NCBI GenBank assembly: GCA_003523255.1
Contig: DPGH01000012.1
Coordinates: forward strand, 118,759-182,758
DNA length: 64,000 nucleotides
Origin: Clostridiales bacterium
GTDB lineage: Bacteria; Bacillota; Clostridia; Christensenellales; Borkfalkiaceae
Direction of reading: 5' to 3'
The translations under genes were made by a program, and so were the position numbers. Below are positions 9,871 through 49,742 of this stretch, one piece after another. The notes beneath the pieces were generated by a model that did not search any database, was not told the origin of the DNA, and saw only the letters and a list, made by a program, of their open reading frames with translations. Positions within the stretch are counted from its first letter, which is position 1, and each line of letters begins with the position of its first letter.

Positions 9871-9874
9871 AGTT

Positions 9875-11071: not shown

Positions 11072-11073
11072 AA

Positions 11074-12252: not shown

Positions 12253-12281
12253 CGATTTTTGCATATTTGCTTTTATAAAAA

Positions 12282-17000: not shown

Positions 17001-17113
17001 CTCGCTACGACGACTATACGGAACTTACCGCAAACGTAACCGACTTCAGTTCGTTCAGCGCTGATTACTGGGATATTTCAGCAGCGGGTTACCCCGTATG
17101 GAAAACAAAGTAA
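14093..17113 (+). CDS. Large secreted multi-domain protein (1006 aa) with two copies of a GLUG-like (GGLxGY) module and a bacterial Ig-like (Big_2-like) domain; paralog of 25925..29299
   Basis: Signal peptide MKTKRITLLLAIIAFCAFSLALSFS. Internally repeated ~150-aa module (KNEGYYILGNDIDATGY...FEGTFDGRGYTINNLSIGAFGLFGYI and KNEGYYVLGNNIDASGY...FEGTIDGRGYTISNITIGTGGLLGYI). Ig-like segment TYTVTSGSEYVTVSDGNITGVAVGDAVITAQYTLGG. AGGGGGA RBS. Confidence 0.7.
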   Translation: MKTKRITLLLAIIAFCAFSLALSFSVVNKTRAEEVTAAEGIVMTEGASVRYDAEEPGIRFTTEMTKSYYDELVAAATDGKVDFYTIITVNGNTEKSARINHERTLRFENGVATFQAAQLIKLVNRELTAEERKKAAAFEFTADFYAEYINAKGETVTVKADKSGVTRSMRGVASYALLNGNVTDENKINMLKGYLGTVTENTEVRYADLSDKSKVDLGLESGAVYLTAQKAGDITDGVVDLSAENIKTGVETTVSVFDADNNVTRYKYIFADKIITKAEDLAVFAIADHKTYKNEGYYILGNDIDATGYTHKHGAWLGWGENQPGFEGTFDGRGYTINNLSIGAFGLFGYIRPHTVLKNFALVNMKPVLSRSDGVDAFGGLAYIAYSTPTAYPTLENIYLSSSFFLDDYVITSGKTQGKTQTIISSMVFSATWGYEQIKNCIFEYTGDVATGGRGIYSGLLQGGKDKITVLDSFVIGKNPVVQTKSNDVYDSANNITEGSGATVYPLTRYSDYAGLTANVTDFSSFDTAYWDISNGAPVFKGAQKYLSKPYVTIGGNTAANYELGINDVKTLGVTAFIGELNDVTYTVTSGSEYVTVSDGNITGVAVGDAVITAQYTLGGEVMTSSINVTVVPTIIEVTTPLEFSMADGTLTAADKIAIFGNSDIEILSVNCFDASVALSIADGVITGFPEYTAKSTPKTYAVSFTTAEAIYKVNVTPYTKIIRTAADLSVFNFPGHDGYKNEGYYVLGNNIDASGYLHKHTTAAGNPTYIDWNTKGTTGFEGTIDGRGYTISNITIGTGGLLGYIRPKTVLKNFAITGITFQRTHGNGDPLTAALAKIMYSTKDSYPILENLYIQANAFIGGADTNSNLVVNCTTGYEKIVNCIFEYSGVKDTTAGHGTYASQIADRNVTGFKIENSYVISLNPVACGGKTNPVYDSANKIEATTAEYTALYPDGSTFPKKDFYTVELTRYDDYTELTANVTDFSSFSADYWDISAAGYPVWKTK

Positions 17114-17130
17114 AGTAAAAACTTTAAGCG

Positions 17131-17162
17131 GCGGTAAGCGGGCATAGCCACCCGCTTACCGC
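17131..17162 (+). other. Perfect 12-bp stem-loop (GCGGTAAGCGGG / CCCGCTTACCGC, 8-nt loop) between the secreted protein gene and the SBP gene
   Basis: Read directly. No downstream U-run, so more likely a partial terminator, RNA-processing or stability element giving differential expression within the operon. Confidence 0.45.
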
Positions 17163-17198
17163 ACCTTTAAGATAAAAAACAAATTCGGAGGAATTATA

Positions 17199-18938
17199 AT
17201 GAAAAAATTTTTTGCACTACTTTTATGTTTATTTACAGCGTTCTCCGTTACGGCATGCGGCTCGGCTGAAGAAGAGGATAACTCTACGACTACCGTTATC
17301 ACCGTACACAATTACAACGGCGGCGTAGGCAACAAATGGCTTGAAGACGCAGCCGCACGCTTTACCGCGCTTAAAACCGCCGACAGCTACGAAGAGGGTA
17401 AAACCGGCGTAAAAATCAATATCGTCGGCAACCAGCAGTCGGAACTCAGCACCATGGCGACTTCCGGTTACAACATGTTCTTTTTCGAGCAGCATTACGA
17501 TATAAGAAATCTTTCTCAAGGCGAAAAACTTCTTGATGTATCCGACGTGCTTACCGAAAAAAGCAACGACGAGCGCGACGGGGTAAAAGTTTCTATCGAA
17601 GATAAAATTCCCGAAGAGTACAGAAGCACTCTTAAAGGCGCGGACGGCAAATATTACGGCTTGCCGCATTACGCCTGGTATCCCGGTCTTACTTACGACA
17701 GAGAATTATTCGACAAATATAATTTCTATTTTGCCGCACCCGATGAAGCGAATAAACAAAAAATCGAAACGCAATTCGGCGGCGAGCATTACTTTATTGC
17801 CGACAAAAACGGCAAAAAGAGTTGCGGTTCCGACGGCAAATACGGCACTGCGGACGACGGACTTCCCTCGTCGGTAGAAGAATTTTTGGTTCTTTGCGCG
17901 TATATGAAAACCACGTACGGCGTTCAACCCGTTACTATGGCGGGTATGTATAAGTATTATTCTAACTATCTGGTTGAGGGGCTTTGGGCTTCGCTTTCCG
18001 GCGGGGAACAAATGAAAGTAAACTACACCTTTACCGGCGACGTAGACGTTGTAACCGGTTATACAAACGAAAACCTTTTTGAGGGTATAGACTACGTTAA
18101 AAAACCGATAGTGGAAACAAAGTCCGTTACCGAGGCGACCGGCTATCTCGCGTACGATTCCGTTTATCGTTACTATGCGGCTTCGCTCGTTAAAATACTC
18201 GAAAAAGAAAAGTTCTTCTCAAGCGACGCGACTATGGGCTCCGTTTCTCACACCACCGCGCAGGGCGACTTTATATTCAGCGGCAAGGCGCAAATGCCCA
18301 AAACCGCAATGCTTATAGAAGGTACCTACTGGTATAACGAAACCGAAGAAAAGGCTAACAACTTAACCGACTACTATTCCGACCCGAGAAATACCGAAAG
18401 GGACGTAAGGTGGATGAATTTACCGACCATTATAAGCGGCTCTGCCAAGCCCGTAGCGGACGACGCCCCCGCGAGAAAGAACACCGCGGTAGAAACTGGC
18501 GGTGCGTACCTTGTGGTAAATGCGAATATAGAAGGCAAAACCGGACTTATAAACGCTATTAAAGACTTTATCAAGTTCCTATACACCGACAGCGAACTCG
18601 AAGCGTTTACCGTTTCTACCGGTATACCCAAGGCTATGCTCGATTACGAAGTAAGCGACGCTAAAATCGCGGACCTTCCCGAGTTCAAAAAATCGGTTAT
18701 TAACTTTGCAAAAACGAGCGATGTAGTTTACGGCGCGGCGGATAACGAAACTTTCCTTAAAAACGGCAACGACGTGTTTAAGGTAAGGGTAAACGCACCC
18801 GTATTCGTACCCAAATACAAAAACGTATCTTACATGAGTTATTTCCAGGCGTATGAAAACGGCGCAACCGCGCAAGACGTATTCGAAGCCACGAGAATAA
18901 GCGCAGAGGGCTGGAAGGCGTATTATGTCGGCAATTAA
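17199..18938 (+). CDS. Extracellular solute-binding lipoprotein of a carbohydrate ABC transporter (LplA-like, family-1 SBP, unusually long at 579 aa)
   Basis: Lipoprotein signal with lipobox FSVTAC|G, followed by a Ser/Glu-rich linker. Size and context with two LplB/LplC-like permeases immediately downstream. Confidence 0.7.
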   Translation: MKKFFALLLCLFTAFSVTACGSAEEEDNSTTTVITVHNYNGGVGNKWLEDAAARFTALKTADSYEEGKTGVKINIVGNQQSELSTMATSGYNMFFFEQHYDIRNLSQGEKLLDVSDVLTEKSNDERDGVKVSIEDKIPEEYRSTLKGADGKYYGLPHYAWYPGLTYDRELFDKYNFYFAAPDEANKQKIETQFGGEHYFIADKNGKKSCGSDGKYGTADDGLPSSVEEFLVLCAYMKTTYGVQPVTMAGMYKYYSNYLVEGLWASLSGGEQMKVNYTFTGDVDVVTGYTNENLFEGIDYVKKPIVETKSVTEATGYLAYDSVYRYYAASLVKILEKEKFFSSDATMGSVSHTTAQGDFIFSGKAQMPKTAMLIEGTYWYNETEEKANNLTDYYSDPRNTERDVRWMNLPTIISGSAKPVADDAPARKNTAVETGGAYLVVNANIEGKTGLINAIKDFIKFLYTDSELEAFTVSTGIPKAMLDYEVSDAKIADLPEFKKSVINFAKTSDVVYGAADNETFLKNGNDVFKVRVNAPVFVPKYKNVSYMSYFQAYENGATAQDVFEATRISAEGWKAYYVGN

Positions 18939-19866
18939 AAACGAGGCAAAAACTATTTTTAACAGCAAAAGGCAACTGCACAGATTTTTATTCTGGTTAA
19001 GCATAGTCGTTTTGCCGCTTATACAGTTTTGCGTGTTTTACGTTTACGTAAACTTTAACATGATTGTAATGTCCTTTCAGCACTTCGAGGCTAAAACGGA
19101 CGCGTTAGGTTACGTAGTAAATTTTGCGGGATTAGAAAACTTTAAAGCGGCTTGGCAGTTCCTCGGCGCAAATCTTTACATGATTAAAAATTCGCTGATA
19201 TACTTCGTGTTCTGCACGTTGCTGACTATGGCGTTCTCGCTATGCTTTTCGTTCTATATCTATAAACAGTTTTTCGCTTCTAAGTTCTTTAAGGTGATGC
19301 TGTTTATGCCGCAAATCGTTTCAAGCGTGGTATTCGCGTTGCTGTTTAAGTATATCGTTACCGACGTTTACATAGGTATCGTCGGCGGCGAAAACGTTAT
19401 AGGGCTTTTGGATAACCCCGCAACGCGTTTCGGTACGGTGCTGTTTTACAACGTATGGATGGGCTTCGGCGTAAACATATTGCTGTTCAGCGGCGCGATG
19501 AGCGGTATAAACGAATCTATAGTAGAATCCGCCGAGATAGACGGCGCTACGCATTTAAGAGAATTCGTAAGTATAACCATACCTATGATATTCCCGACGA
19601 TTAAGTCGCTTTTGGTTCTCGGCATAGTCGGCGTGTTTACCAACCAGATGAATTTATTTACCCTTTTCGACAATCAGGCGGGGGACGTGTCTACGTTAGG
19701 TTACAGCATTTACCTGCAATCGGTACGAGCGGACATAATAAACAAAGACCCCAACAATCTCGACTTTTCGCAGTTGTCGGCTCTCGGTATAATCTTAACG
19801 CTTATACTTGTACCGATAACCACGGGCATTAAAAAACTGCTCGATAAGTACGGGGCAAGCGTGTAG
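18925..19866 (+). CDS. Carbohydrate ABC transporter permease (LplB-like, MalF/UgpA class)
   Basis: 6 TM segments. EAA-loop-like region ESAEIDGATHLREFVSITIPMIFP. 14-nt overlap with the SBP gene. Confidence 0.8.
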   Translation: MSAIKNEAKTIFNSKRQLHRFLFWLSIVVLPLIQFCVFYVYVNFNMIVMSFQHFEAKTDALGYVVNFAGLENFKAAWQFLGANLYMIKNSLIYFVFCTLLTMAFSLCFSFYIYKQFFASKFFKVMLFMPQIVSSVVFALLFKYIVTDVYIGIVGGENVIGLLDNPATRFGTVLFYNVWMGFGVNILLFSGAMSGINESIVESAEIDGATHLREFVSITIPMIFPTIKSLLVLGIVGVFTNQMNLFTLFDNQAGDVSTLGYSIYLQSVRADIINKDPNNLDFSQLSALGIILTLILVPITTGIKKLLDKYGASV

Positions 19867-19878
19867 GAGGAGCAAAAA

Positions 19879-20826
19879 ATGGATGATAAAAAAACTGCGT
19901 CCCGCGGGCGCGCTTTAAGTAACTTTTTTATAATTTTGCTCGGAACGATTATTTTGCTTTACGCGATATCGGTTATTCTTCCGCTTGTGTGGGGGCTTAT
20001 AACTTCGCTTAAATCGAATATGGACTTTCAGTACCAAAACAATAAACTTTGGTTTCCGAATGCAGAGTTCAGCGCGGCTGAAATAAAACTCGCCAACTAC
20101 TCGCTTATACTTAATAACTTTAACTTTTCCGAAACGGTAATGTTTTATTCGGGCAGCACTCTCGTAACGCATAAAGCGCAGGCAACGCTACCTTTACTTA
20201 TACTGAACACGTTTTTATACGCGGGGGTGGGTTGCCTTATACTCGCGATGGTACCCGCGGTTTGCGCATACGCCTGCACGAAATACAAGTTTAAGTTTAA
20301 CAAAGTAATTTTTATGCTTAACCTTGTCGTGATGACGTTGCCTATCGTAGGTTCTTACGCGACATCGCTTACGCTTTTGAGAAACTTGGGGTTATACGAT
20401 AACTTCTACGGTAACTATATACAAAAGTTTTCTTTTACCGGTATGTATTTCCTCGTGTTCGGCGCCTTTTACGAAACCTTTCCCGACGCGTATTTAGAGG
20501 CGGCGGAGATAGACGGCGCTTCGCATTACCGCGTGCTTTTCAATATAGTCATTCCGCTTTCGGCAAAAATGCTGGGCACGGTTGCGCTTATTCAGTTCGT
20601 TTCGCTCTGGAACGACTATCAAACGCCGCTTATGTATTTGCCCACGCATCCTACGCTTGCTTACGGCGTGTACTATATGGCTTTTAAAAACACTAACGGC
20701 GTGCTTTCCAAAACGCCGATAAAAATCGCGAGTTGTATGATACTCGCAGTGCCGATTTTAATTTTGTTCATCGTGTTTAAAGACAAACTCATGGGCAACA
20801 TTTCTGTCGGCGGAATTAAAGAATAA
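19879..20826 (+). CDS. Carbohydrate ABC transporter permease (LplC-like, MalG/UgpE class)
   Basis: EAA loop EAAEIDGASHYRVLFNIVIPL. 6 TM segments. Confidence 0.8.
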   Translation: MDDKKTASRGRALSNFFIILLGTIILLYAISVILPLVWGLITSLKSNMDFQYQNNKLWFPNAEFSAAEIKLANYSLILNNFNFSETVMFYSGSTLVTHKAQATLPLLILNTFLYAGVGCLILAMVPAVCAYACTKYKFKFNKVIFMLNLVVMTLPIVGSYATSLTLLRNLGLYDNFYGNYIQKFSFTGMYFLVFGAFYETFPDAYLEAAEIDGASHYRVLFNIVIPLSAKMLGTVALIQFVSLWNDYQTPLMYLPTHPTLAYGVYYMAFKNTNGVLSKTPIKIASCMILAVPILILFIVFKDKLMGNISVGGIKE

Positions 20827-20841
20827 ACCAAAAGGAGATGA

Positions 20842-23800
20842 ATGATGAAGGCAATAAAAAACAAATTGTTTGTTCTGGCGCTTTTGTGCGCGGCGGTATG
20901 TTTGCTTTCCGCGGGGTTTTTAACGATTAAACCCGTTTCCGCTTACGTCAGCGGCGAGTTTACCGAAACCGCGGTTAAAGACGAATACGTTGTGGGCGAT
21001 ACGTTTTCACTTAAAAACGCTAAAATCGAGTACGACTCCAAAGAGTACTCCGTAACGAGCGCGTCTATGCGTTATCCCGACGGCAGAGTTTTTGAAAAAT
21101 CCGAGTACGTTTTCGAGGACGCGGGTAAATACGTTTTAACCGCTTACGCAAAAACCGACGCGAACGAAACCGTGCGTACCGAAAAAGGAATAAGCGTTTT
21201 GTCGAGCGCGTACAGCGTTTCTGGCGAGGGTTCGCAAATCGAATATAAAGACGTTTTACCGATGAGCGCGGCGGAATATGCGGGATTGTATATAAAAGTC
21301 GCCGACGGAGAAACGTTTACCTATCACGAGGCAATCGATTTAACCGCGAACGGGGGAGTAAACACTTTTCTTTCGCTGTATCACTATAACTTTAATACTC
21401 GTCTCGAAGGGGCAGACGGTTCTTTAAGACAGGTAAACAATATAGTAATTCGCTTAACCGACTGCTACGACGAAAAGAATTATATCGAATACACCATGTA
21501 CTGGGGTCCTTCGATGATGTATTACAGGGCGGGCGCTTCTAACCAAAAGAGCACCGGCTTATATCAGAACTCCGCTACGGGCAATTACGTAACGATATAC
21601 GTTGACGGCGTTGCTTACCGCGTGTTCTATTCGGACTGGGGCACTCACTCCAACATGCGCGGGCACAATGCCGAAAACAGACAAGTTCCGTACGAATTTT
21701 CGTTCGACTACAACACCAAACGCTGCTATATCAAAGACTGCTATGCAAACTGGCTTGTAACCGACCTCGACAATACGGACATTCAGGCGGAAACGTTTAA
21801 CGGTTTTACCACGGGTGAAGTTTATCTTTCCATAAGGGGCGTAGATTATCAGCAGGCTCCGTACTTTGAAATAAACGTCTCCGAATTAAACGGCAAAACA
21901 GGCAAATCTCTCGATATGTCTTGCATCCGGGACAACGTTCCGCCGGAACTCGTTATAGACGTGCCGGAAGTCGACCCGATAAAAATCGCGAAGGGTGAAA
22001 AGTTCAAAACTTTCGACGCGACTGGTTACGATTTTAATCTGCTCGGCGACGTGTCCGTAAAAGTTTTTTACAATTACGGCACCAAATATCAGGTAAACGT
22101 ACCGACGGAAAACGGGTATTTTACGCCCGATAAAATCGGCGAATACACTTTTGTGTACACCGCAACGGACAAATACGGCAATAAAACCGAAAAGACGGTA
22201 AAAGTTTATTCCGTCGCGACCGAAAACGGCAAAACCATAGATTTTACCGTCGACAGGCTTACCGAACTTAAAACCGGTAAAGAGTGCGTTCTCCCCGAAT
22301 ATTCGGTACGCGGCATAAACGGCGGCGTTTCGGTAGAAACGTTTTACTCTTTCGGCGGAAAAGAAACAAAAATAATCGGCAACGCGTTTACTCCTACGGC
22401 TTTCGGCGAGTACGAGATAATCTACAGATATTTCGACGCGGTGTCTTATTACGAATATTCTTATAAAGTAAACAGCGTTTCTTCTGACGCGATAAGCCGT
22501 AAAACCGACGCGTTTTTACCCGAATACTTTATTAAAAACGCCGAATATTCTCTCGATAAACTTTTGGTAAACTCTTTCGATACGGGTAAGGTTTTAGACC
22601 ACGAAACGGAAATTTACGTAAGCGAGGACGGCGGAGAGTACAAAAAAATCTCTTACCAAAAATATAAGGTAAACGCCGAAAACAGTTTGAAGTTTAAGTA
22701 CGTTTACAAAGACTGGCAGTACGAAACGGGTGAAAAGAAAGTCGTAAACGTAGGTTTCGGCAGTTCGCTCGACTTAACCAAGTACTTTGTCGGCGGAGAA
22801 GCATCCGCAAACTTTAACAGCGCGACGCTTATCGCAAACGAAGAGGGTACTACTAAAATCGATTTTATAAATCCGATTTTAACGACGAATTTCAATATAG
22901 ACTTTTCCGTCCCGCAGGACGGCGCGGCTTACGAAGAACTTACGATAAGACTCATAAATTACTACAATTATCGCGAAGTGCTTGATATAAACTACAAAAA
23001 CATAAACGGCAAGGGCTATTTGGGTATTAACGACGGCGAGTATAAAACGCTTTTGAATACCGACTTTGCGGGAGTGCAGAGAACGCTTGCATATAATCAG
23101 AAATCCAACGAGTTCTCGACTTCCGGCGTAAATGTCGTTAGTCCGGTTAAGTTATCGTCGGAAAAGGTTTTCGTTTCGTTTATCGTTAAAAACGCAAGCG
23201 GCGTAGCCGGCGTAAAACTCAACGCGATAAACAATCAGGTGTTCTCTACGGTTAAAAACGACTTTATTTTGCCCGAATTTTCAGTAGGCGGCACCAACGG
23301 CATCTTCTCCAAAGGAGATTTGGTAACGATAGAGCCTATCGCGGTTTGCGACATGCTTTCGCCCGTTCTTGACGAAAACACGCTTTTAACGATAAAAGAC
23401 CCGAGCGGCAACGCGGTTACGGACGTTAACGGCGTAAAACTTACCGACGTTCCCGCGCAACTTAACTCTTACACGTTTGCGGCAAACGAGTTCGGAACTT
23501 ATATCTACACTTATACGGTAGAGGACGAAAGCGGTAACGTTGCGTATAGCAAAGACCTTGAAATAAAGGTTGCAGATACCGTTAAACCGCAAATTACGAT
23601 AAGCGGCATAAGTAACGGAGATAAATTAACCGCAAAATACGGCACCGTATACAAACTCCCCGATTGTACCGTTAGCGATAACAACACGGCGGTTTCGGAT
23701 ATTGTGGTAATAAAGGCGGTATTTACCCCCTCTAACGAGGTTATTACCGCGGGTGATACCGTGTATCTCGACAGGTGCGGTGTTTATACGATCGTATATT

Positions 23801-23868
23801 ACTGTTACGACGACGGCGGAAATTACGCTTCCGTTTCTTATACCTTACAAGTAGACAGAGGTGAATAA
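20842..23868 (+). CDS. Large secreted surface protein (1008 aa): N-terminal beta-sandwich (ConA-like?) region followed by several Ig-like (DUF5011-type) domains
   Basis: Signal peptide MMKAIKNKLFVLALLCAAVCLLSAG. Repeated Ig-like segments of the pattern P.I..G.....YG..Y.LP.......D.....V......G.YTIVY...D..GN (e.g. PQITISGISNGDKLTAKYGTVYKLPDCTVSDNNT...GVYTIVYYCYDDGGNYASVSYTLQV). No catalytic motif recognised. Confidence 0.6.
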   Translation: MMKAIKNKLFVLALLCAAVCLLSAGFLTIKPVSAYVSGEFTETAVKDEYVVGDTFSLKNAKIEYDSKEYSVTSASMRYPDGRVFEKSEYVFEDAGKYVLTAYAKTDANETVRTEKGISVLSSAYSVSGEGSQIEYKDVLPMSAAEYAGLYIKVADGETFTYHEAIDLTANGGVNTFLSLYHYNFNTRLEGADGSLRQVNNIVIRLTDCYDEKNYIEYTMYWGPSMMYYRAGASNQKSTGLYQNSATGNYVTIYVDGVAYRVFYSDWGTHSNMRGHNAENRQVPYEFSFDYNTKRCYIKDCYANWLVTDLDNTDIQAETFNGFTTGEVYLSIRGVDYQQAPYFEINVSELNGKTGKSLDMSCIRDNVPPELVIDVPEVDPIKIAKGEKFKTFDATGYDFNLLGDVSVKVFYNYGTKYQVNVPTENGYFTPDKIGEYTFVYTATDKYGNKTEKTVKVYSVATENGKTIDFTVDRLTELKTGKECVLPEYSVRGINGGVSVETFYSFGGKETKIIGNAFTPTAFGEYEIIYRYFDAVSYYEYSYKVNSVSSDAISRKTDAFLPEYFIKNAEYSLDKLLVNSFDTGKVLDHETEIYVSEDGGEYKKISYQKYKVNAENSLKFKYVYKDWQYETGEKKVVNVGFGSSLDLTKYFVGGEASANFNSATLIANEEGTTKIDFINPILTTNFNIDFSVPQDGAAYEELTIRLINYYNYREVLDINYKNINGKGYLGINDGEYKTLLNTDFAGVQRTLAYNQKSNEFSTSGVNVVSPVKLSSEKVFVSFIVKNASGVAGVKLNAINNQVFSTVKNDFILPEFSVGGTNGIFSKGDLVTIEPIAVCDMLSPVLDENTLLTIKDPSGNAVTDVNGVKLTDVPAQLNSYTFAANEFGTYIYTYTVEDESGNVAYSKDLEIKVADTVKPQITISGISNGDKLTAKYGTVYKLPDCTVSDNNTAVSDIVVIKAVFTPSNEVITAGDTVYLDRCGVYTIVYYCYDDGGNYASVSYTLQVDRGE

Positions 23869-25885
23869 CATGAAAAAAAGAATAATTGCGATTGCGCTGC
23901 TTATAGTTTGCTTGTTCGTTACGGGCTGTAATAAAGACGGCGACCTTCCTCACACGCCCGAAAGGCGTAACGACAAGGTTACTTACGAAGGCTCGCACAA
24001 CATGAGTTACGAATTTCTCGAAGACGATTTTATCAGCGACGGGCACAGCGATTACGTTTTGGTTTACTCCGCAAACGCTAAAAGTTACGACCTGACGGCT
24101 GTAAAAGAGTTCAATTCTATTTTTGAAAAAGCCACCGGTTTTACTCTTAACACGACGACGGACAGCGGGCTTTCTCATACGGCGGGCGGCAAATATATTT
24201 CTATCGGAAAAACCGCTTTGTTTGAAAGTTCGGGTTTAACCGTTAATTTCGACGAACTCGGCAACGAAGGCGTAAGAATACTTACCAAAGACAAAACGGT
24301 GTATATACTCGGCGGTAAAACTAACGGCGTTATATTCGGCGTTTACGATTTTATGAGCATAGCGTTTAATTACGAAACGTTTTATGAAGATTGCATTCAG
24401 ATAAACGAAGGCGTTAATAACCTTAAACTTATAAATTTCAACGTTACCGATATTCCGGATATCGCTTTGCGTGCGCGTAACTATTCCGTATATTCGAGAA
24501 AAAGCGAAGATTACGATATGAATATGTTCAAAACGCGTATGAGAATGACGAGCAACAGAGAACTTTTGCCGATACACAAAACGTATAGCCAGAGTTCGCC
24601 TTCAAGCATCTCGGACTCACATAACTCGACGTTCTTTCTCCCGAGAGAAGTTTATTATGCCGACCATCAGAAATGGTTTAGCGACAACGGCGACCAACTT
24701 TGCTACACCGCGCACGGCGACGCCGAAGAGTTCGAGGCGATGGCTTCAGAATGCGCTAAAAAGGTTGAATACAGCCTTACCTTGTACACTCCGGACGAGC
24801 ACCCCGAGTACGACGTGGTTGCGCTTAATATAATGGATAACCGCGCTATTTGCTCCTGCAAGGCGTGCGCGGCGTCGTTCAAAACGTACGATAACTGCAA
24901 CTCGGCGGCGGCTATAAAACTTATCAACAGAATGGCAGAACTTGTTGACGAGTGGATGGAAAAGCCCGAAAACGCGGCTTACAAAAGAGAAATGCACTAT
25001 ATATTCTTCGCATATCTCGATTTAGAACCGTGTCCCGCGCGCTATAACGAAGAAACCAAAAAGTACGAACCTATCGACGAAACGGTAAAAATGCGCGATA
25101 ACGTGGGCGTGTACCTTGCGCTTCTCGACCAACTCGATTATCAGGCGAGCATATACGACGCGGTAAACGACGACGGCAGAAAGATTATAGACGCATGGGG
25201 CGATATGACCGACTACGTATGGTACTGGCTGTACGAGATAAATTTCAGAAACGCCAACTATTTTTACGATTCGTTCAACTTTTTCGGAGAAGCGTATTCC
25301 TATATTTGCAATAAAGGCGCCACGCTTTTATACACGCAGGGTAAGTCTTACGAAATCGCTTGCGACACGGTATACGACAAGTTAAAACTTTACCTTAACT
25401 CCAAACTTTCGTGGGACAGTTCGCTCGACGTATCGGTTCTTACCGACAACTGGTTTAACGCGATGTTTAAAGAAGCCGCTCCCGCGATGAAACGGATATT
25501 CCTCGATACGCGTGCGTACAATGCTAAAATGATTCGCGATAACGGGTTTATCCATAAGCGTACTAATTATAACGAAGTAAACAACGCTAAATACTGGTCG
25601 CTTAACTATCTTAAACAGCAAATGGCTGCGTATGACGAGGCAAAACAAATTATCGCTACCGTATATGCGGAAGATTCCGTAACCAAAACGCGTATTTCGA
25701 GATATATCGAAGCGGAATGGTTTTCGCCGGCGTTTATAACTGCCCAGCTTTATGCCGTCAACCTTTCTACGGCGGAAAAGAGCGAACTCTACGCAAGAGT
25801 TTCCGCCGCGGTAGAAGATTTAGGCATCACCCGTACGGGAGAGTCCTCGGGAACGAGCGTTATGGACGTATTGAATAACATGTAA
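23861..25885 (+). CDS. Lipoprotein, DUF4838/GH20b-N-terminal-like putative glycoside hydrolase (674 aa)
   Basis: Lipobox LFVTGC|N. N-terminal region (YVLVYSANAKSYDLTAVKEFNSIFEKATGF...VYILGGKTNGVIFGVYDF) resembles the beta-hexosaminidase/GH67-type N-terminal domain seen in DUF4838 proteins. The family name is given from memory and is not verified. Confidence 0.4.
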   Translation: MNNMKKRIIAIALLIVCLFVTGCNKDGDLPHTPERRNDKVTYEGSHNMSYEFLEDDFISDGHSDYVLVYSANAKSYDLTAVKEFNSIFEKATGFTLNTTTDSGLSHTAGGKYISIGKTALFESSGLTVNFDELGNEGVRILTKDKTVYILGGKTNGVIFGVYDFMSIAFNYETFYEDCIQINEGVNNLKLINFNVTDIPDIALRARNYSVYSRKSEDYDMNMFKTRMRMTSNRELLPIHKTYSQSSPSSISDSHNSTFFLPREVYYADHQKWFSDNGDQLCYTAHGDAEEFEAMASECAKKVEYSLTLYTPDEHPEYDVVALNIMDNRAICSCKACAASFKTYDNCNSAAAIKLINRMAELVDEWMEKPENAAYKREMHYIFFAYLDLEPCPARYNEETKKYEPIDETVKMRDNVGVYLALLDQLDYQASIYDAVNDDGRKIIDAWGDMTDYVWYWLYEINFRNANYFYDSFNFFGEAYSYICNKGATLLYTQGKSYEIACDTVYDKLKLYLNSKLSWDSSLDVSVLTDNWFNAMFKEAAPAMKRIFLDTRAYNAKMIRDNGFIHKRTNYNEVNNAKYWSLNYLKQQMAAYDEAKQIIATVYAEDSVTKTRISRYIEAEWFSPAFITAQLYAVNLSTAEKSELYARVSAAVEDLGITRTGESSGTSVMDVLNNM

Positions 25886-25891
25886 AAAAAC

Positions 25892-25912
25892 GGGGTCGTA
25901 AAGGGCGACCCC
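25892..25912 (+). other. Short GC hairpin (GGGGTCG...CGACCCC) immediately before the RBS of the 25925 gene, no U-run
   Basis: Read directly. Possible intra-operon attenuator or stabiliser. Confidence 0.35.
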
Positions 25913-25924
25913 TAAGGAGGAAGT

Positions 25925-28900
25925 ATGAAGAAAAAATTAACAGTATTACTACTATCGTTATGCGCGTTGCTTTGCGTTTTCGGCGCGGCGGCGTGTAACG
26001 ACAATCCCGATACTCCGCCGGAACCGAGCGTTACCGAGAGTTTGACTCTTAACAGCGCGCGGTGCGAATTGCTCGTCGGCGACGAATTTAAACTCGTTGC
26101 AACGTATACGGGCAACGCGCAGGGCGAAGTAAGTTTCGTTTCCGATAACGCCGCCGTCGTGGAAGTGGCGAATGACGGAACGATAACCGCCGTAGCGGAG
26201 GGTGAAGCCAACGTTACCGCAAGCAAAGGCGAAAAATCCGCAAAATGCGCGGTTACCGTTTCTTTCGGTAGCGAAACGCCTTTGTTAAAGTTTGACGAAA
26301 GCGAATTGTCTTTAACGAGAAAAGATTCGCTCGATTTAAATGTTAAAGTACATTTCAACAACAAAACGTTTACTCCTACCGACGTCGAATATTCTGTAGA
26401 AGACGAAGAAATCGGTAAAGTCGAAAACGGAAAGTTTGTTCCCGAAAAACTCGGTTTTACTAAAATAACCGCAACGGGTAAGTGGGGCGGCAAAACTCTT
26501 ACGAGCGAAAGCATGACAGTAACCGTTACGCGTGATCTCAGACTTTATTTTAACGACGGCGGCGAGGATAAAGTAGAACTTTATTCTAAGGCGTCTTATA
26601 GGGGTCTGTCTTTCGTAACCGAGCAAGATTTTATCGTGCGCGCATTCGAGGACGGCGAAGCGCTTACCGGCAGGGGCGCAAGCGTTATCGAGGGAGATGA
26701 CGTTATCTCTTACGAAAACGGCAAAATTAAAGCCTTAAAAAAGGGAACTGCCAAAATAGAAATTTACTGCGTGGATAACGGCGGAGAAAGGTTTACTAAA
26801 ACGGTAGATGTGCTTGTAAAAGTTCCCGTGGCGGAAATTACCGACCCCGTGGAATTAAGCCTTAAAAAAGGAGTTTTCTCGTCCGAAGCGTTAAACGCTA
26901 TGTTTGAAAGCGGCTCGGTAGCCGTTACCGACATATCGTGCGATAACGACGATGTTACCGCTTCGGTTTCCGGCGGCAGAGTTTCTATCGGTGGCGACTT
27001 TGCCTTGGCAACACCCGTTTATTTCACCGTTTATACAGAAGAATACGGTTGCAAAGTTCCGCTCGTTCTTTATTCCGATATTATAACCGAGGCTTCAGAC
27101 TTCTCGTCTTTCGTAATAGCAAGACAAGATGATTATAAAAACGAAGGATATTATATACTCGGTAACGATATAGACGCATCGGGTTACTTGTATAAACATA
27201 CTACTGCCTCGGGCGGTAAACCGTGGATAAGCATGGGCGGCGGAAAGAACGGCTTTAACGGTACGTTTGACGGCAGAGGACACGTCGTAAACAATATGAC
27301 GATAGGTACTTTCGGAATATTCGGATATATAATGCCTAAAGCGACTATTAAAAACGTGGCGTTTACAAACGTTAAGTATCAAGACACTTACGGTAATAAA
27401 GAGATACTCGTAGCTACTCTTGCGACCTGTATCGACTCGTCAGAAAACGTTTATCCTACGTTAGAAAACTTGTATATACAGGCAAGTTCGTTTATCGGCG
27501 GAGAAAATACTATTTGTAACCTCGTAACCAACTCGACCGTCGGATACGAAAAAGTAAAAAATTGTATTTTTGAATTCAGCGGAGTTGATAATATTGCGGG
27601 GCACGGGGTATATTCAAGCCTTGTGTTTAGCAGCAATACCAAGTTAAAAGTAGAAAATTCTTACGTAATATCTACTTCTCCCGTTGCTTCCGGTAAAGGT
27701 TCCAACATAATTGCGGACAGCGAAAACAAACTTGCCGCAACGAAAGAAAAATATCAGGGCTTATATCCGAGTAAAACGGACGATAAATTTATTGCTTATC
27801 CGCTTACCCGTTATAACGACTATGCGGAATTTAAACAAAACGTTTCTAATCTGGCTGCTTTCGATACCGCATACTGGGATATATCTAACGGCGCGCCGAT
27901 ATTCAAAGGCGTGCAAAAAGTATTTAAGCCGTATATAACCGTAGACGGTAATCCAGCAAGCGAATTAGAGTTGATATTAAACGAAGAAAAAGAACTCGGC
28001 GTTACGTCGTTTATAGGTCAAATAGCAAACGTTACTTTTGCCGTTACTTCCGGTAGCGAAAACGTTACTATAGAAAACGGCGTGTTAAAGGGTATTAAAA
28101 CGGGTAAAGCAGTTGTTTCTGCCGTGTTCGCGCTCGGCGGTGAAAACGTTACCCTTACGTTAAACGTAAACGTGGTAAACGAAATTATAACCGTCAACAC
28201 TCCGATAGAATTCAGTATGATGGACGGCACGCTTACTTCTGCAGATAAAACCGCCATATTCGGTAGCGACGCGGTAGAAATTATCGATGTAAAGGCTACC
28301 GATATAACGGCTAACCTCTCGCTTGTAAACGGCAAAATAACGGGCTTCCCCGAATACACCGCGGGTGCCGCGCCTAAAACGTACGAGGTGTTGTTTACTA
28401 CGGCAGACGCTATTTATAAAGTAAACATTACGCCTTATACGAAAATAATAAAAACCGTTTCCGATTTATCGGTATTCAATTTCCAAGGTCATACGGGCTA
28501 CAAGAACGAAGGATATTACGTGTTAGACAACAACATAAACGCGTCCGGGTATCTGCATAAACATACCACGGCATCGGATAATCCGACGTATATAGACTGG
28601 AATACTAACGGCACAACCGGGTTTGAGGGAACGATTGACGGCAGAGGATATACGATAAGCAATATCACGATCGGCACCGGCGGTTTGTTAGGGTATATAA
28701 GACCTAAAACAACGATTAAAAATCTTGCCATAACCGGTATAACGTTCCAAAGAACGTACGGTAGTGATGACCCGCTTACAGCGGCGCTTGTCAAAATAAT
28801 GTATTCGACGAAAGACAGTTATCCTGTACTTGAGAATTTATATATAAAGGCAAACGCGTTTATCGGCGGGGCAGATACAAACAGTAACCTTGTGGTAAAC

Positions 28901-29299
28901 TGCACCTCCGGCTATGAAAAAATAGTGAACTGCATATTCGAGTATTCGGGGGCGAAAGATACCACCGCCGGACACGGCACGTACTCCTCGCAAATAGCGG
29001 GTAGAAACAACACAGGGTTTAAGGTAGAAAATTCTTACGTAATCTCGTTAAACACCGTAGCGTGCGGCGGCAAAACCAACCCCGTTTACGACAGCGCAAA
29101 CAAAATCGAGGCGACGACAGCGGAGTACACGGCGTTGTATCCGGATGGCTCAACGTATCCTAAAAAAGATTTCTATACCGTAGAGCTTACTCGTTACGAC
29201 GACTATGCGGAACTTACCGAAAACGTAACCGATTTCAGTTCGTTCAGCGACGCTTACTGGGATATTACCGCGGGCTATCCCGTGTGGAAAAACGCTTAA
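25925..29299 (+). CDS. Large secreted/lipoprotein multi-domain protein (1124 aa): two Big_2-like domains and two GLUG-like modules; paralog of 14093..17113
   Basis: Signal with lipobox FGAAAC|N. Big_2-like segments (LTLNSARCELLVGDEFKLVATYTGN...VTASKGEKSAKCAVTV). Modules KNEGYYILGNDIDASGYLYKHTT...FNGTFDGRGHVVNNMTIGTFGIFGYI and the C-terminal ~300 aa >90% identical to the C-terminus of the 14093 protein. AGGAGG RBS. Confidence 0.7.
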   Translation: MKKKLTVLLLSLCALLCVFGAAACNDNPDTPPEPSVTESLTLNSARCELLVGDEFKLVATYTGNAQGEVSFVSDNAAVVEVANDGTITAVAEGEANVTASKGEKSAKCAVTVSFGSETPLLKFDESELSLTRKDSLDLNVKVHFNNKTFTPTDVEYSVEDEEIGKVENGKFVPEKLGFTKITATGKWGGKTLTSESMTVTVTRDLRLYFNDGGEDKVELYSKASYRGLSFVTEQDFIVRAFEDGEALTGRGASVIEGDDVISYENGKIKALKKGTAKIEIYCVDNGGERFTKTVDVLVKVPVAEITDPVELSLKKGVFSSEALNAMFESGSVAVTDISCDNDDVTASVSGGRVSIGGDFALATPVYFTVYTEEYGCKVPLVLYSDIITEASDFSSFVIARQDDYKNEGYYILGNDIDASGYLYKHTTASGGKPWISMGGGKNGFNGTFDGRGHVVNNMTIGTFGIFGYIMPKATIKNVAFTNVKYQDTYGNKEILVATLATCIDSSENVYPTLENLYIQASSFIGGENTICNLVTNSTVGYEKVKNCIFEFSGVDNIAGHGVYSSLVFSSNTKLKVENSYVISTSPVASGKGSNIIADSENKLAATKEKYQGLYPSKTDDKFIAYPLTRYNDYAEFKQNVSNLAAFDTAYWDISNGAPIFKGVQKVFKPYITVDGNPASELELILNEEKELGVTSFIGQIANVTFAVTSGSENVTIENGVLKGIKTGKAVVSAVFALGGENVTLTLNVNVVNEIITVNTPIEFSMMDGTLTSADKTAIFGSDAVEIIDVKATDITANLSLVNGKITGFPEYTAGAAPKTYEVLFTTADAIYKVNITPYTKIIKTVSDLSVFNFQGHTGYKNEGYYVLDNNINASGYLHKHTTASDNPTYIDWNTNGTTGFEGTIDGRGYTISNITIGTGGLLGYIRPKTTIKNLAITGITFQRTYGSDDPLTAALVKIMYSTKDSYPVLENLYIKANAFIGGADTNSNLVVNCTSGYEKIVNCIFEYSGAKDTTAGHGTYSSQIAGRNNTGFKVENSYVISLNTVACGGKTNPVYDSANKIEATTAEYTALYPDGSTYPKKDFYTVELTRYDDYAELTENVTDFSSFSDAYWDITAGYPVWKNA

Positions 29300-44581: not shown

Positions 44582-44614
44582 GAAGAGGTCGCCCGTTTAT
44601 CGGGCGACCTCTTC
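44582..44614. terminator. Perfect 14-bp hairpin (GAAGAGGTCGCCCG-tttat-CGGGCGACCTCTTC) between convergent typA and the Cys-rich small gene
   Basis: Read directly. The U-run is weak on both strands and slightly better for the minus-strand gene. Confidence 0.6.
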
Positions 44615-44667
44615 CGCTTGAAAGCGTCTACTTTATGAGTCGTCTTTCGTAAAATAACTTTTGCGGT

Positions 44668-44874
44668 TTATTTGCAGCCGCAGCCTAAGTTGCCGAAAAA
44701 GTTCCCGCCGCCTTTGCAGCAGCAGCAAATAAGGAGCAGAGCCACAGGCAGACAGTAGCAACTGTTGAAGATTCCGTTAAGGCAGCCGCTTTTTGCGAGG
44801 CAGATAATAAGTAAAATTATCAGAATCCATAAGCAGCAATTGTTGCCGCCGAATAAGTCAAAACATCCGTTCAT
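44668..44874 (-). CDS. Small cysteine-rich hydrophobic protein (68 aa, 13 Cys), YjcZ-like?
   Basis: Strong SD GGAGG 7 nt upstream of the ATG. Sequence MNGCFDLFGGNNCCLWILIILLIICLAKSGCLNGIFNSCYCLPVALLLICCCCKGGGNFFGNLGCGCK. A terminator hairpin lies downstream. The opposite-strand ORF 44765..44968 is rejected. Confidence 0.6.
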   Translation of the reverse strand: MNGCFDLFGGNNCCLWILIILLIICLAKSGCLNGIFNSCYCLPVALLLICCCCKGGGNFFGNLGCGCK

Positions 44875-45130
44875 ACGTTTACCTCCAAAGTATATACGAA
44901 CCTCCGCCTATGTAGTTTTAAGTGTTTCGGCGAAGTTTTCTACTATCAATATAGTCGCAAAATCTTAAAAATGTTACGACCGCCCTTTTTTTATTTGCTA
45001 CCGCAATTAAAATGTGTTAAAATAATGCAAAAGGCGGACAGAACTATTCGTTCGACCTAATAACATAAAAACAGGTTTTTTACTTAAAATTTCGACGGGT
45101 ATTCATTCGTAAACCCGATTGGAGGCAAAA

Positions 45131-45730
45131 ATGCAAAGTAACCTTACAAAGACCCGTAAAATCACGTATTTTGCGGTGCTTACGGCACTCGTTGTCGTTT
45201 TTCAACTTTTGTGCGGCACGTTACGCATCGGCGCGATAAATCTTAATTTTTCACTCGTTCCGATAGTCGTCGGCGCAATGCTGCTCGGGCCGTTGTTCGG
45301 CTCGATTATCGGTCTTATCGAAGGCGTCGTCGTGCTCGTCATGGGGGTAACGGGATTAGACCCGTTTACAAACGCATTGTTCGGTTTAGAGCCGGTCGTA
45401 ATCGCGGCAGTGTGTCTCGTCAAAACGGCGGCGGCAGGCGCGGTTTCGGGCTTGCTATTTAAACTTTGCGAAAAGAAAAATCGCACTCTCGGCGCGTTCG
45501 TCGCGTCGGCGGCGGCACCCGTCGTCAACACGCTTATATTCGTTATAGGTATGCTGTTTATTCAGGGTGCGCTCGTAGAACTCGGGTATACGGACGGAAC
45601 TTTCGTTTCTATACTCACCGCGCTCGTCGGATTTAATTTTTTCGTCGAACTGGTTATAAATCTCGTACTCGCGCCGGCGGTTTTACGCGTCGCCTGCGCG
45701 GTAGATAAAAATTTCGGGAGAGAACAATGA
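45131..45730 (+). CDS. ECF-transporter substrate-specific (S) component, putative pantothenate-specific (PanT-like) by linkage to coaX
   Basis: About 6 TM small membrane protein. GGAGG SD before ATG 45131. 4-nt overlap with type III pantothenate kinase. Confidence 0.5.
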   Translation: MQSNLTKTRKITYFAVLTALVVVFQLLCGTLRIGAINLNFSLVPIVVGAMLLGPLFGSIIGLIEGVVVLVMGVTGLDPFTNALFGLEPVVIAAVCLVKTAAAGAVSGLLFKLCEKKNRTLGAFVASAAAPVVNTLIFVIGMLFIQGALVELGYTDGTFVSILTALVGFNFFVELVINLVLAPAVLRVACAVDKNFGREQ

Positions 45731-46500
45731 TACTCGCGATAGACGTTGGCAATACCAACATAAAATACGGAGTTTACGATAAAGACGCGCTCGTCGCGTC
45801 GTTCAGGGTTTCGTCGCGGCTATCTCGCACGGCGGACGAATACGGGTCGGTACTCGTAAATCTATTATCCGATAAGGGTATAGAAAAGGGTGAAATAAAA
45901 GGCATTATAGTTTCTTCCGTCATACCGCACCTTAATTACACGATATGCCATATGTGCGAATACTTTTTCGACATTTCACCCTTAATGGTGGGGCCGGGGA
46001 TAAAAACGGGGCTCGACGTAAAGGTGGAAAGTCCGAAAGAGGTCGGCGCGGACAGAATAGTAAACAGCGTGTCCGCATATAATAAATACGGCGGACCGAT
46101 AGTCGTTATAGACTTCGGAACGGCAACCACTTTTAACGTGATAGACGGAAAGGGCGCGTTAATCGGCGGCGTAATCGCCCCGGGTATAAAAACCTCGCTC
46201 GAGAGTCTTGTAAAAAACACCGCGCAATTACCTATGATTGAACTCGTTTCGCCAAAATCGGTAATCGCCAAGAATACCGAAACCAACATGCAGGCGGGTA
46301 TTATTTTCGGCTTTGCGGGGCTTGTGGACAACATTCTTAACAAGATAAAAGCCGAACTCGGCAGCGAAAACGTAAAAGTCGTAGCGACGGGCGGACTCGG
46401 CGAAATAATCGCCAAAGAAGTAAAAAGCATTTCAATCGTCGACAGAACGCTTACTCTCGACGGGTTGAAAACGATATATAATCTCAACGTAAAAGGTTAA
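45727..46500 (+). CDS. coaX: Type III pantothenate kinase
   Basis: MILAIDVGNTNIKYGVY, GADRIVNSVSA and FGTATTF motifs of CoaX (Bvg accessory factor family). Confidence 0.88.
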   Translation: MILAIDVGNTNIKYGVYDKDALVASFRVSSRLSRTADEYGSVLVNLLSDKGIEKGEIKGIIVSSVIPHLNYTICHMCEYFFDISPLMVGPGIKTGLDVKVESPKEVGADRIVNSVSAYNKYGGPIVVIDFGTATTFNVIDGKGALIGGVIAPGIKTSLESLVKNTAQLPMIELVSPKSVIAKNTETNMQAGIIFGFAGLVDNILNKIKAELGSENVKVVATGGLGEIIAKEVKSISIVDRTLTLDGLKTIYNLNVKG

Positions 46501-47850: not shown

Positions 47851-49533
47851 TTATTTTTTGTCAAAGCAGTCGCAACGATGCGTGCCGACGTAGCCCGTGT
47901 CTTTGCATTTTTCGCAAACGTAAACGGGGGTAAGGTCTTTCGTTTTAAGTCCTATCGAAGCGAGTTTTTTCTCGATTTCCGCGTTCAATTGCGCTTTTTC
48001 AGATTCCAACGCGGCAAGTTTGTCGTTTTGACCGGAAATTTCCGCAAAAGCAAGGTCTTTTTCTATGCTGAACGTTCTTTCGTAGTCGGCGGCAAAACCT
48101 TCTATTTCCATTGCCACGTCTAAATTCTTTTGCGCGACGGAAGCGGCTTTCGCGCGGCGTTTTTCGTATTCGCGGTTGTAAGCCTCCGGCGATAGTTCTC
48201 CGTCGAAAGATGACTTTTCGGTTATCGATTCCGCGGTAAATACGCCTTTGTTTTTCCAGTTTGACAAAACTCCGTTCACGTACGCTACGGGCGAATTTTT
48301 GCCCGCGGCGAGTTTTGCCGCTTCTAAAATCATATCCTCGCCGAAATTCCAACTTTTCCACGTGGCAAGATTTTCTCTGTCCCACGCGTTGGGTCTGCGA
48401 TTTACGCCCGCCGTCGCAAGGAATTTCGAAATAAATTCGTCCGCGATTTTAAGCGAACCGAAATAGTCGCTTACGCTCGATAAATCTATAAATCCGCGTT
48501 CTCTTAAATACTCTATAAGTTCATCCATGGCTTTAAGAGAGTTCTTGCCCGATTTAAAACATTCGGATGCGATAAACAAAAGCGTTTCGTCCGAATAGCC
48601 GTAAGAAAGCCATTTGTTGGTATATACGTCTATTACCGTTTCCATAACCTCGGTGTATACCGAAAGCGTTTTGTTTATCTTTATCGCAAGGTCGTAAACC
48701 GCTTGTTTTTTATCGAAATAACCTTTCATTTCGCTTACGGAAAAACATTTTACCGAATATAATTCGTTAAGCAGACGGTCGAGCGTTTCCATGCCGCCTT
48801 TTTTTACTTTGCTTGCGGCAAACGTAATCGCTTCCGTTTCGAACCCAAGGTCGCCGGTCCATTTTTTATAAAAATTCAAATCTTCGATTTCGGGCTTGCG
48901 TTTAAGCGAAAGCGCTTTGAAAATCTTTTCTATTTCCGCCGTACGCAAAACGTAAGAAGAAAGTTCTTTTTCAACCTTTTCTACGGTAACAACGCCTTTT
49001 TCGGCAAAATTTTTCGCCACGCGCGTTATATACTTATAGCCGATATCCGAGCCTTTAAGGTCAACGCAATAATTGACTATCATAATCATCGCTTCGGGCT
49101 TTATGCCGTACGTTTCCATCACGTTAAAGTATTCCGTGTATTCGTTCGTGCCTATCATGCGCGAAGATACCGCCTGTTGCACGGCTTTGGTAAACTCGGA
49201 GTATTTTTCGGTTTTGTATTTTCTCGGTTTTGAAAGAGAAGTCGCTTTCACCGGGAAGTATTCTACGGAAAGCGGGTCAGAGGAAAGCACGGAAACCAAG
49301 CCGAATTCTTCCCAGTACTTAAAGCAAGAAAGAACTTCTTCTTCAGAAAGTTTAAGGGTATCCGCAACGTCTTTAACAGACCTGTCGCCACGGTCGAATT
49401 TGCATAAATATAAACCGTAAAGGTAGACTTTAACCGCTTCTCCCGAAGAGAAAGGCATGTATTGACAGATAAATACGTTTTCTACGTCGGTAAATGCCGA
49501 CGACGTAAAATCTTTAGAATAAAAACAGGTCAT
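47851..49533 (-). CDS. DnaD-domain protein (replication initiation/membrane attachment, Bacillus DnaB-like) with C-terminal Cys cluster
   Basis: N-terminal winged-helix DnaD-like region and repeated DnaD-like C-domains. C-terminus VCEKCKDTGYVGTHRCDCFDKK. Start set to the MTCFY Met (49533), which has a GGAGAG SD. Confidence 0.6.
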   Translation of the reverse strand: MTCFYSKDFTSSAFTDVENVFICQYMPFSSGEAVKVYLYGLYLCKFDRGDRSVKDVADTLKLSEEEVLSCFKYWEEFGLVSVLSSDPLSVEYFPVKATSLSKPRKYKTEKYSEFTKAVQQAVSSRMIGTNEYTEYFNVMETYGIKPEAMIMIVNYCVDLKGSDIGYKYITRVAKNFAEKGVVTVEKVEKELSSYVLRTAEIEKIFKALSLKRKPEIEDLNFYKKWTGDLGFETEAITFAASKVKKGGMETLDRLLNELYSVKCFSVSEMKGYFDKKQAVYDLAIKINKTLSVYTEVMETVIDVYTNKWLSYGYSDETLLFIASECFKSGKNSLKAMDELIEYLRERGFIDLSSVSDYFGSLKIADEFISKFLATAGVNRRPNAWDRENLATWKSWNFGEDMILEAAKLAAGKNSPVAYVNGVLSNWKNKGVFTAESITEKSSFDGELSPEAYNREYEKRRAKAASVAQKNLDVAMEIEGFAADYERTFSIEKDLAFAEISGQNDKLAALESEKAQLNAEIEKKLASIGLKTKDLTPVYVCEKCKDTGYVGTHRCDCFDKK

Positions 49534-49742
49534 AAAATAACGCTCTCCGTAAAGCAAATCTTAAAAACGCTTGCTTTGGCGAATATATTGTTATATAATA
49601 TTATTTAAGTTATATCTACATATTCGGGTAGTATAACCATAACGCCGTATATCGACATTATAAACGAATAAACGTAAAAAATCAACCTTTATAAACGGCT
49701 CTTTTAAAAAACGGCGCATCGCGCCGTAGCCGACGGAGTAAC

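Follow-up and report, generated by a model that had tools for sequence, protein, structure and literature searches.

What does a gut bacterium keep a 68-amino-acid (aa) peptide with 13 cysteines for, and to which class of small cysteine-rich proteins, if any, does this peptide belong? The question is raised by a short open reading frame (ORF) on the reverse strand (44668-44874) of a 64,000-nucleotide (nt) stretch of contig DPGH01000012.1 (assembly GCA_003523255.1, from a Clostridiales bacterium placed in the Borkfalkiaceae, Christensenellales), referred to here as the window. The ORF is a genuine gene, protein-coding and monocistronic, and its carriers are Christensenellales-like gut Clostridia that form an order-level clade. 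It is a vertically inherited housekeeping microprotein gene, and the family to which it belongs is undescribed and part of no Pfam or NCBIfam family. The most reasonable reading is that the product has a role in the membrane and possibly binds metals. Few gut bacteria are as heritable and as closely associated with health as the Christensenellales, and to our knowledge hardly anything has been learned about the genes specific to their lineage.

A constrained microprotein of gut Clostridia

The mechanical ORF list contains the ORF with an ATG start, and its translation is identical to the peptide of the first-pass annotation, an earlier description of this DNA made from its letters. The features described there could all be confirmed, i.e., the length, the 13 Cys (C4, C13, C14, C25, C31, C39, C41, C50-53, C65 and C67) and the motifs CC, CxC, CCCC and GCGCK. 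Cysteine makes up 19% of the peptide vs. 1.0% of the 18 long ORFs of the same window. The annotation was also right in noting a well-placed Shine-Dalgarno (SD) sequence and a stand-alone gene, for which a promoter, SD and terminator of its own can be recognized (Table 1). Its location "between terminators" is only half correct. A terminator is found downstream, but the upstream side is a 245-bp region with two back-to-back promoters and no terminator.

A word-indexed search gave 19 clusters of close relatives of the peptide, and when every GTDB species was scanned with one genome each, the gene was encoded in at least 117 species genomes, 80 of which were fetched as loci for comparison. An exhaustive HMMER profile search of 1.84 billion representatives gave only 15 matches, all of them either of the same narrow family, with no more than a handful of more distant members, or fusion or frameshift artefacts. 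The source genomes are all uncultured metagenome-assembled genomes (MAGs) labeled as Christensenellaceae, 'Christensenella sp.', Clostridia or Borkfalkiaceae, and they come from the rumen, caecum, colon and faeces of ruminants, horses and humans. There is a single copy of the gene in the window and in each locus examined, and no relatives were found in 2.9 million viral contigs or in 72,556 plasmids.

The coding sequence is under strong purifying selection. Among the 73 distinct coding sequences the proportion of synonymous differences (pS) was 0.79 and that of nonsynonymous differences (pN) 0.12 (pN/pS 0.15), and variability was 0.38 at third vs. 0.04 at second codon positions. Together with the presence in so many species, this goes well beyond what chance would give. 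Synonymous variation is free at every codon of the ORF, which places the constraint on the encoded protein, not on any RNA that overlaps the gene. What emerges is an order-wide, single-copy and strongly constrained microprotein that has been overlooked by the family databases and misnamed in GenBank. The window's exact peptide is deposited there as HCH74712.1 under the name 'chorion class high-cysteine HCB protein 13', and several relatives in NCBI bacterial MAG records bear the same automated label. Chorion class high-cysteine HCB protein 13 is the name of a silk-moth eggshell protein. The only likely likeness between the two is a Cys/Gly-rich composition with GCGC-type runs, and the name is most likely a low-complexity or composition artefact.

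Searches with the peptide and 48 diverse family members against Pfam, NCBIfam, PHROG and the PDB sequences gave chance matches only (SecE, PPR, E>0.01). A small Cys-rich membrane protein is not, as such, a novel class of system. The distinctive traits of the family are the 9-14 Cys carried on a predicted two-helix scaffold, the invariant GC(K/R) end and the conserved loops in the untranslated regions (UTRs) of its mRNA.

The first-pass annotation had pointed to a resemblance with the YjcZ sporulation proteins, and the likeness is easy to see. Both are tiny Firmicutes proteins in which a Gly-rich N terminus is followed by an Ile/Leu run (LFILLII in YjcZ, LIILLII in the peptide), and some YjcZ members have a few Cys or Gly in their tails. 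Genuine YjcZ proteins carry the PF09680/TIGR01732 signatures and have 30-57 aa, one helix and an invariant F-L-VVLFILLII-G core. The profile check that had been proposed was run, and neither the window peptide nor any of the 48 family members matched these models at E<=10. When the family profile was aligned by hhalign with 44 YjcZ proteins, the probability was 8% over 7 columns that cover the ILLII run only, and on this ground the resemblance is to be seen as compositional and not homologous, as far as profiles can tell. The peptides differ from YjcZ, besides, in their length of 65-72 aa, their two predicted helices, their 9-14 Cys, their single copy per locus and their sigma-A-like promoter. 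The named hosts of YjcZ matches are overwhelmingly Bacillaceae and related Bacillales, whereas the peptide family, a Christensenellales one, was met only in Christensenellaceae/Clostridia MAGs.

Predicted architecture and a possible thiolate function

A way to approach the role of the peptide is to look at which of its positions the family preserves. Although single Cys sites vary, each peptide keeps 9 to 14 of them. Invariant or near-invariant positions in the broad family are M1, N2, F5, N12, C14, L15, W16, I19, I20, L22, G30, G34, C39, P43, L46, C50, G64, G66, C67 and K68, and the C terminus G-C-(K/R) is invariant throughout. The best-kept Cys are C14, C25, C31, C39, C41, C50 and C67, with C39 and C67 invariant. 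Occupancy by Cys reaches 75-100% at positions 13, 14, 25, 27, 31, 39, 41, 50, 51, 65 and 67 (position 27 is a Cys in most relatives of the window peptide) and 65-96% across the CC at 13-14 and the CCxC at 50-53. The patterns CLC, CYC, CCxC and CGC recur and are conserved in the family. The N terminus is conserved to the same degree as the rest; it has no positively charged n-region or lipobox, and a reading of it as a signal peptide or lipoprotein signal was rejected.

The product is predicted to be an integral membrane microprotein with two short hydrophobic helices (approximately 13-29 and 41-53) separated by an 11-residue polar loop. An AlphaFold2 model built from 16 sequences places the helices at 13-29 and 41-51, with low confidence (predicted local distance difference test, pLDDT, 51.5), and the hydrophobic cores have 12-15 residues. 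The conserved positive charges K28, K54 and K68 suggest a hairpin with both termini inside (N-in/C-in). The Cys of high occupancy are found at the ends of both helices (13/14, 25/27, 39/41 and 50-53), in the loop (31) and in the tail (65, 67). With the suggested topology they would fall into two clusters, one at the outer face (C25, the C27 of most relatives, C31, C39 and C41) and another in the cytoplasm (C13/C14, C50-53 and C65/C67), all of the CC or CxC type.

Along these lines, the explanation that we consider the best supported, though still less likely than not, is that the peptide is a microprotein of the membrane whose thiolates bind a soft metal or redox equivalents or pass them on. 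At the membrane, or across it, the thiolate clusters would bind a thiophilic ligand, buffer it or pass it along, and the candidates for this ligand are metal ions of the Cu(I)/Zn/Cd type or redox or sulfane-sulfur equivalents. The peptide would thus act as a housekeeping buffer or relay and not as an accessory weapon or a spore component, with a mechanism analogous to the vicinal-Cys relays of MerF/MerT and to the CxC/CC sites of metallothioneins. If the Cys clusters do bind metals or carry redox or sulfane equivalents, the peptide would be a minimal membrane thiolate device, one of possible relevance where gut and rumen bacteria face stress from copper, zinc and sulfide.

The two analogies illuminate different halves of the peptide. 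MerF, MerT and MerE are very small membrane proteins, and MerF, a two-helix hairpin of 81 aa, functions through vicinal Cys pairs near the membrane faces that relay the thiophilic metal. The peptide would share this design (and only the design), with a predicted small helical hairpin, a CC before helix 1 and a CCCC after helix 2. It is unlike MerF in having many more Cys, a cluster in the loop, a GCGCK tail and hydrophobic spans that are much shorter. The family profile had no match at E<=10 to any chain of the PDB, MerF among them, and there was no Pfam match, and none of the mer operon genes (merR, merP, merA) is found among the gene neighbours, which are instead TypA, NUDIX, an energy-coupling factor transporter S component (ECF-S), CoaX, Hom and a DnaD-like protein. 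Metallothioneins and Cu(I)-thiolate peptides (MymT; the CCxC site of Cox17) resemble the peptide in their 15-30% Cys arranged as CxC/CC, and 13 Cys in 68 residues with dense motifs of this kind is a trait of the metallothionein type. Gly, Asn, Ser and Lys between the Cys are common to both, and the tail CCCCKGGG...GCGCK resembles a metallothionein fragment. Metallothioneins are soluble and lack hydrophobic helices, unlike the peptide, and no homology is detectable.

Several observations weigh against a thiolate device. No gene for metal resistance, redox functions or a metal-sensing regulator is conserved beside the peptide gene (a single distant locus has an ArsR-type gene), CxxC motifs are absent from the peptide, and the Cys at C4, C13, C52 and C53 are replaceable. 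The hydrophobic cores are short for spanning a bilayer, the helix model is of low confidence as said above, and the topology rests on the three conserved lysines only. The similarity to MerF and metallothioneins is architectural only, in keeping with the empty PDB search, and what we say about metal binding, localisation and expression is read from the sequence.

Promoter and RNA elements of the gene

The upstream regions of the peptide gene are strikingly conserved across 74 genomes, and the elements recognized in the window are collected in Table 1. A regular expression for NNAACA followed, after 18 nt (19 nt in 4), by a TATATT-like hexamer fitted 59 of the 74 regions, and the other 15 deviate slightly (e.g., CACA). 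The consensus sequences of sigma-K (AC-N16/17-CATAnnnTA) and sigma-E (kmATA-N15-18-CATAYAnT), for which the first-pass annotation had suggested looking, were found by the same approach in none of the 74. The gene would thus have a conserved sigma-A-like promoter of its own, in place of the sporulation promoter that had been envisaged. Readings of the region as a sigma-F/G, sigma-H or extracytoplasmic function (ECF) sigma promoter were rejected after a comparison by eye with the consensus of each. Taken as a Cop-box, a Fur/Zur-box or CsrA (GGA) sites, the conserved TATTGATAAT and UACAUAGG blocks offered half-sites only, and these readings were dropped as well.

Table 1. Coordinates of the elements predicted or recognized around the peptide gene, as positions in the window.
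Feature	Position	Strand	Remarks
Cys-rich microprotein ORF	44668-44874	-	68 aa; predicted helices 13-29, 41-51; C terminus G-C-(K/R)
Shine-Dalgarno GGAGGT	44881-44886	-	7 nt upstream of ATG; GGAGG invariant in 76 aligned upstream regions
Putative promoter region	44939-44977	-	-35-like GTAACA 44972-44977; 18-nt spacer; -10-like TATATT 44948-44953
Conserved block TATATTGATAGTAGA	44939-44953	-	contains the -10-like TATATT
5'UTR hairpin (predicted)	44902-44935	-	5' arm CUUCGCC 44929-44935; 3' arm GGCGGAG 44902-44908; A-rich loop
3'UTR hairpin (predicted)	44620-44648	-	8-nt loop CAUAAAGU 44630-44637; stem imperfect in the window
Intrinsic terminator (predicted)	44582-44614	-	strong; 14-bp stem (10 G-C pairs), T-rich tail; second, after the 3' loop hairpin
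Putative divergent ECF-S/CoaX promoter and leader	44995-45133	+	promoter TTGCTA-17-TAAAAT 44995-45023
Leader hairpins A and B (predicted)	A, 45034-45056; B, 45095-45119	+	stems with bulged A; SD 45121-45125; probable start ATG 45131
ECF-S gene (Pfam ECF_trnsprt), then CoaX, type III pantothenate kinase	45131-46500	+	CoaX 45727-46500

The predicted mRNA has a leader of about 65 nt that bears a hairpin, its SD is very strong, and the loop of its 3' hairpin/terminator is conserved. The 5'UTR hairpin (7-8 bp) begins about 10 nt past the -10 element, and 4 of its 8 pairs show compensatory changes (e.g., CUUCGCC/GGCGGAG vs. CUCCAC/GUGGAG). No shuffled alignment equalled the observed covariation and slid controls were much worse. 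Most of the loop varies, but conservation reaches at least 90% over the six bases that close it, UACAUA (44909-44914). The same hexamer recurs by an unrelated stem (GGGAG...UACAUA-CUCCC) at about 5955-5985 of locus L094, whose homologue is 43% identical. A search of Rfam with both strands of the intergenic region and the peptide gene, the 5'UTR hairpin included, gave no credible match.

At the other end of the gene, the loop of the 3' hairpin has the family consensus C-R-H-A-A-H-G-U, and the stems that carry it differ entirely across the main subfamily. In approximately 1 Mb of related loci, read on both strands, 39 of 41 hairpins with this loop lie at the 3' end of the peptide gene. A hairpin followed by a T-run is present there in 67 of 77 distinct loci, and in most relatives the loop hairpin is itself the terminator. 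No convincing pairing partner was found for UACAUA or for the 3' loop. Pairing of AAAGU in the 3' loop with ACUUU beside the SD was rejected, being a frequent RNAduplex site with inconsistent covariation, and so was a pairing of the divergent leader with the peptide 5'UTR (GGCGGA vs. CUUCGCC), for which a comparison by eye showed no covariation across clades. In two loci (L001, at 6205-6290, and L002) the last codons and the stop are repeated in tandem in the 3'UTR, with three copies in L001 and two in L002 of a unit of about 25 nt (...GGCGGTTGCTGCAAATAA...) that starts straight after the ORF. Three compact RNA elements are on offer for study at the peptide gene.

The divergent operon and competing explanations

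The surroundings of the gene in the window are a housekeeping neighbourhood. The order is YchF, ArgRS, Rho, a DNA methylase, a cation diffusion facilitator (CDF) transporter, D-Tyr deacylase, DUF4364, NUDIX, TypA/BipA and the peptide gene, and past it ECF-S, CoaX, homoserine dehydrogenase (Hom), a DnaD-like protein, a signal peptidase, PepF and DnaB. A clear structure is also present in the leader (45024-45130) of the ECF-S/CoaX operon, which is divergent from the peptide gene. After an extended -10 come two tandem hairpins of one design (N-CRG-N-Y-A ... G-A-N'), the second of which abuts the SD. Over 73 sequences 97.5% of the cells are paired, compensatory changes occur at 13 of the 16 pairs, and no shuffle equalled these values. 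One structural descriptor fits both hairpins and gave 139 matches in 1.03 Mb, about 128 of them in ECF-S leaders, vs. 15 in shuffled DNA. The tandem hairpins were also found in the distant loci examined.

These hairpins recall the pan RNA motif (RF01749), whose bulged-A stems are likewise in tandem. As published, that motif lies upstream of pantothenate genes, in most cases as a tandem, and its stem is interrupted by two conserved bulged A (PMC2864571). In place of panB/C/D, the genes downstream here encode the S component of a transporter and a pantothenate kinase. Neither the window (44870-45140) nor L050 (2870-3010) gave a match to the Rfam model RF01749 at E<=10, and no other Rfam family matched the tandem hairpins credibly. 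The leader is a candidate for a pantothenate- or coenzyme A (CoA)-related riboswitch or a protein-binding leader, and its likeness to pan supports the name PanT-like for the S component. A structured and unregistered leader of this kind could make pantothenate/CoA sensing experimentally testable. The true start of ECF-S is probably the ATG at 45131 and not the TTG at 45119, because the latter lies inside hairpin B/SD and the GGAGG at 45121-45125 is conserved.

How do other explanations of the peptide compare with a membrane thiolate device? It might be a small subunit or regulator of another membrane complex, with Cys that serve only for hydrophobic helix packing or are lipid-modified and take no part in metal or redox chemistry. 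Many bacterial microproteins of this size act in such a way, the strongest conservation is in the helices and at the non-Cys positions N12, W16, I19, G30 and P43, and single Cys sites are found occupied by L, F, V or A instead. We nevertheless consider it rather unlikely, given that every peptide keeps 9-14 Cys concentrated at helix ends and tail, that C39 and C67 are invariant, that CxC/CC patterns recur and that no partner complex is identifiable. A more specific partner would be the operon next door, with the peptide as an accessory of the PanT-like S component or as a part of the homeostasis of CoA or low-molecular-weight thiols. The gene is divergent from CoaX in 76 main-family loci, with ECF-S between them in 63 of the 76 (tblastn), and the arrangement is kept in all distant members whose upstream sequence is at hand (P0019, P0025, P0029, P0031 and P0032), in which the peptide is 43-57% and CoaX 58-66% identical. 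On the opposite flank, by comparison, the first neighbour is any of 16 different genes across 71 loci. The pan-like tandem hairpin of the operon points to pantothenate-related control. This constancy may reflect a functional link, or it may reflect only an inherited adjacency of back-to-back promoter regions that tolerate insertions poorly. The promoters are separate and the leaders unrelated, with the tandem hairpin on the ECF-S side only, and L016 apparently keeps the peptide gene beside CoaX without ECF-S (a 349-bp gap without tblastn match). We know of no ECF transporter with a Cys-rich microprotein subunit, and on balance such a coupling seems unlikely. It is improbable, too, that the microprotein and the PanT-like/CoaX operon are a single module of thiol/CoA homeostasis. 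In such a module a membrane Cys-thiolate relay (for metal, persulfide or CoA-disulfide exchange) would work with pantothenate uptake, and two unrelated RNA elements would control the two arms, the UACAUA hairpin with the 3' loop in one and the pan-like tandem hairpin in the other.

The remaining explanations are weaker. Cys-rich proteins are typical of the outer layers of spores, and this, next to the superficial YjcZ likeness of the Gly-rich N terminus and ILLII run, speaks for a small protein specific to sporulation, which would be of the YjcZ kind or else a Cys-rich part of the membrane or coat of the spore. The hhalign and model searches described above go against it, as do the sigma-A-like promoters and the lack of any sporulation gene among the neighbouring genes examined. 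A few Christensenellaceae MAGs are predicted to sporulate, which would fit a spore protein, but they are few indeed (1 of 19 Christensenellales MAGs in the only host cohort with a stated total; PMC12536801) beside a gene present in at least 117 species genomes, and we consider a spore function quite improbable. A small hydrophobic peptide with a very strong SD and conserved 5' and 3' UTR structures also brings to mind type I toxins (hok, tisB, fst and bsrG type), membrane-damaging peptides made from a structured mRNA under antisense RNA control. The synonymous sites of the ORF vary freely, with no overlapping antisense constraint visible, and the 3' flank past the hairpin is unconserved and often leaves 55-90 nt to the next gene. 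No sign of an antisense or adjacent complementary small RNA antitoxin was seen in the synonymous variation of the ORF, in the 3' flank or in the divergent leader (by eye, across clades). Unlike such toxins, whose distribution is patchy and often multi-copy or mobile, the gene is order-wide, in one copy at a fixed chromosomal site throughout the clade, with its protein under strong purifying selection and no relative in phage contigs or plasmids, all of which makes a toxin very unlikely. Least probable of all appears the bacteriocin-like product that the first-pass annotation had entertained, a precursor of a ribosomally synthesized and post-translationally modified peptide, e.g., of the Cys-rich sactipeptide or lanthipeptide type. 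The Cys content is high and there is a GG pair at residues 9-10 that could fit, but no maturase, peptidase-ABC (ATP-binding cassette) exporter or immunity gene is conserved nearby in the window and related loci. The N terminus is as conserved as the rest, two hydrophobic helices are predicted, and the gene is inherited vertically as a fixed single copy per locus and missing from the phage and plasmid collections.

Other features of these loci deserve mention. About 450 bp downstream of the peptide gene, L096 has (6656-6997) an ArsR-type (HTH_5) gene and a 57-aa ORF, the sole metal-regulator neighbour seen. In 21 loci (L026-L032, L040, L041, L046, L051, L052, L058, L067 and others) the gene of a 498-aa permease-like membrane protein lies between the peptide gene and typA, on the strand of the peptide gene and about 200 nt downstream of it, with a conserved upstream sequence of its own (AAACCTTGAAA...). 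In the window, the DnaD/DnaB_2-domain replication protein (568 aa, 47851-49557, reverse strand) has a Cys-rich tail, CEKCKDTGYVGTHRCDCFDKK, that resembles a small zinc-binding knuckle. Farther away, the forward strand at 439-13370 and 14093-29299 carries a row of eleven ORFs, each of about 340-490 aa, and after them come several very large ones (1006, 1008 and 1124 aa).

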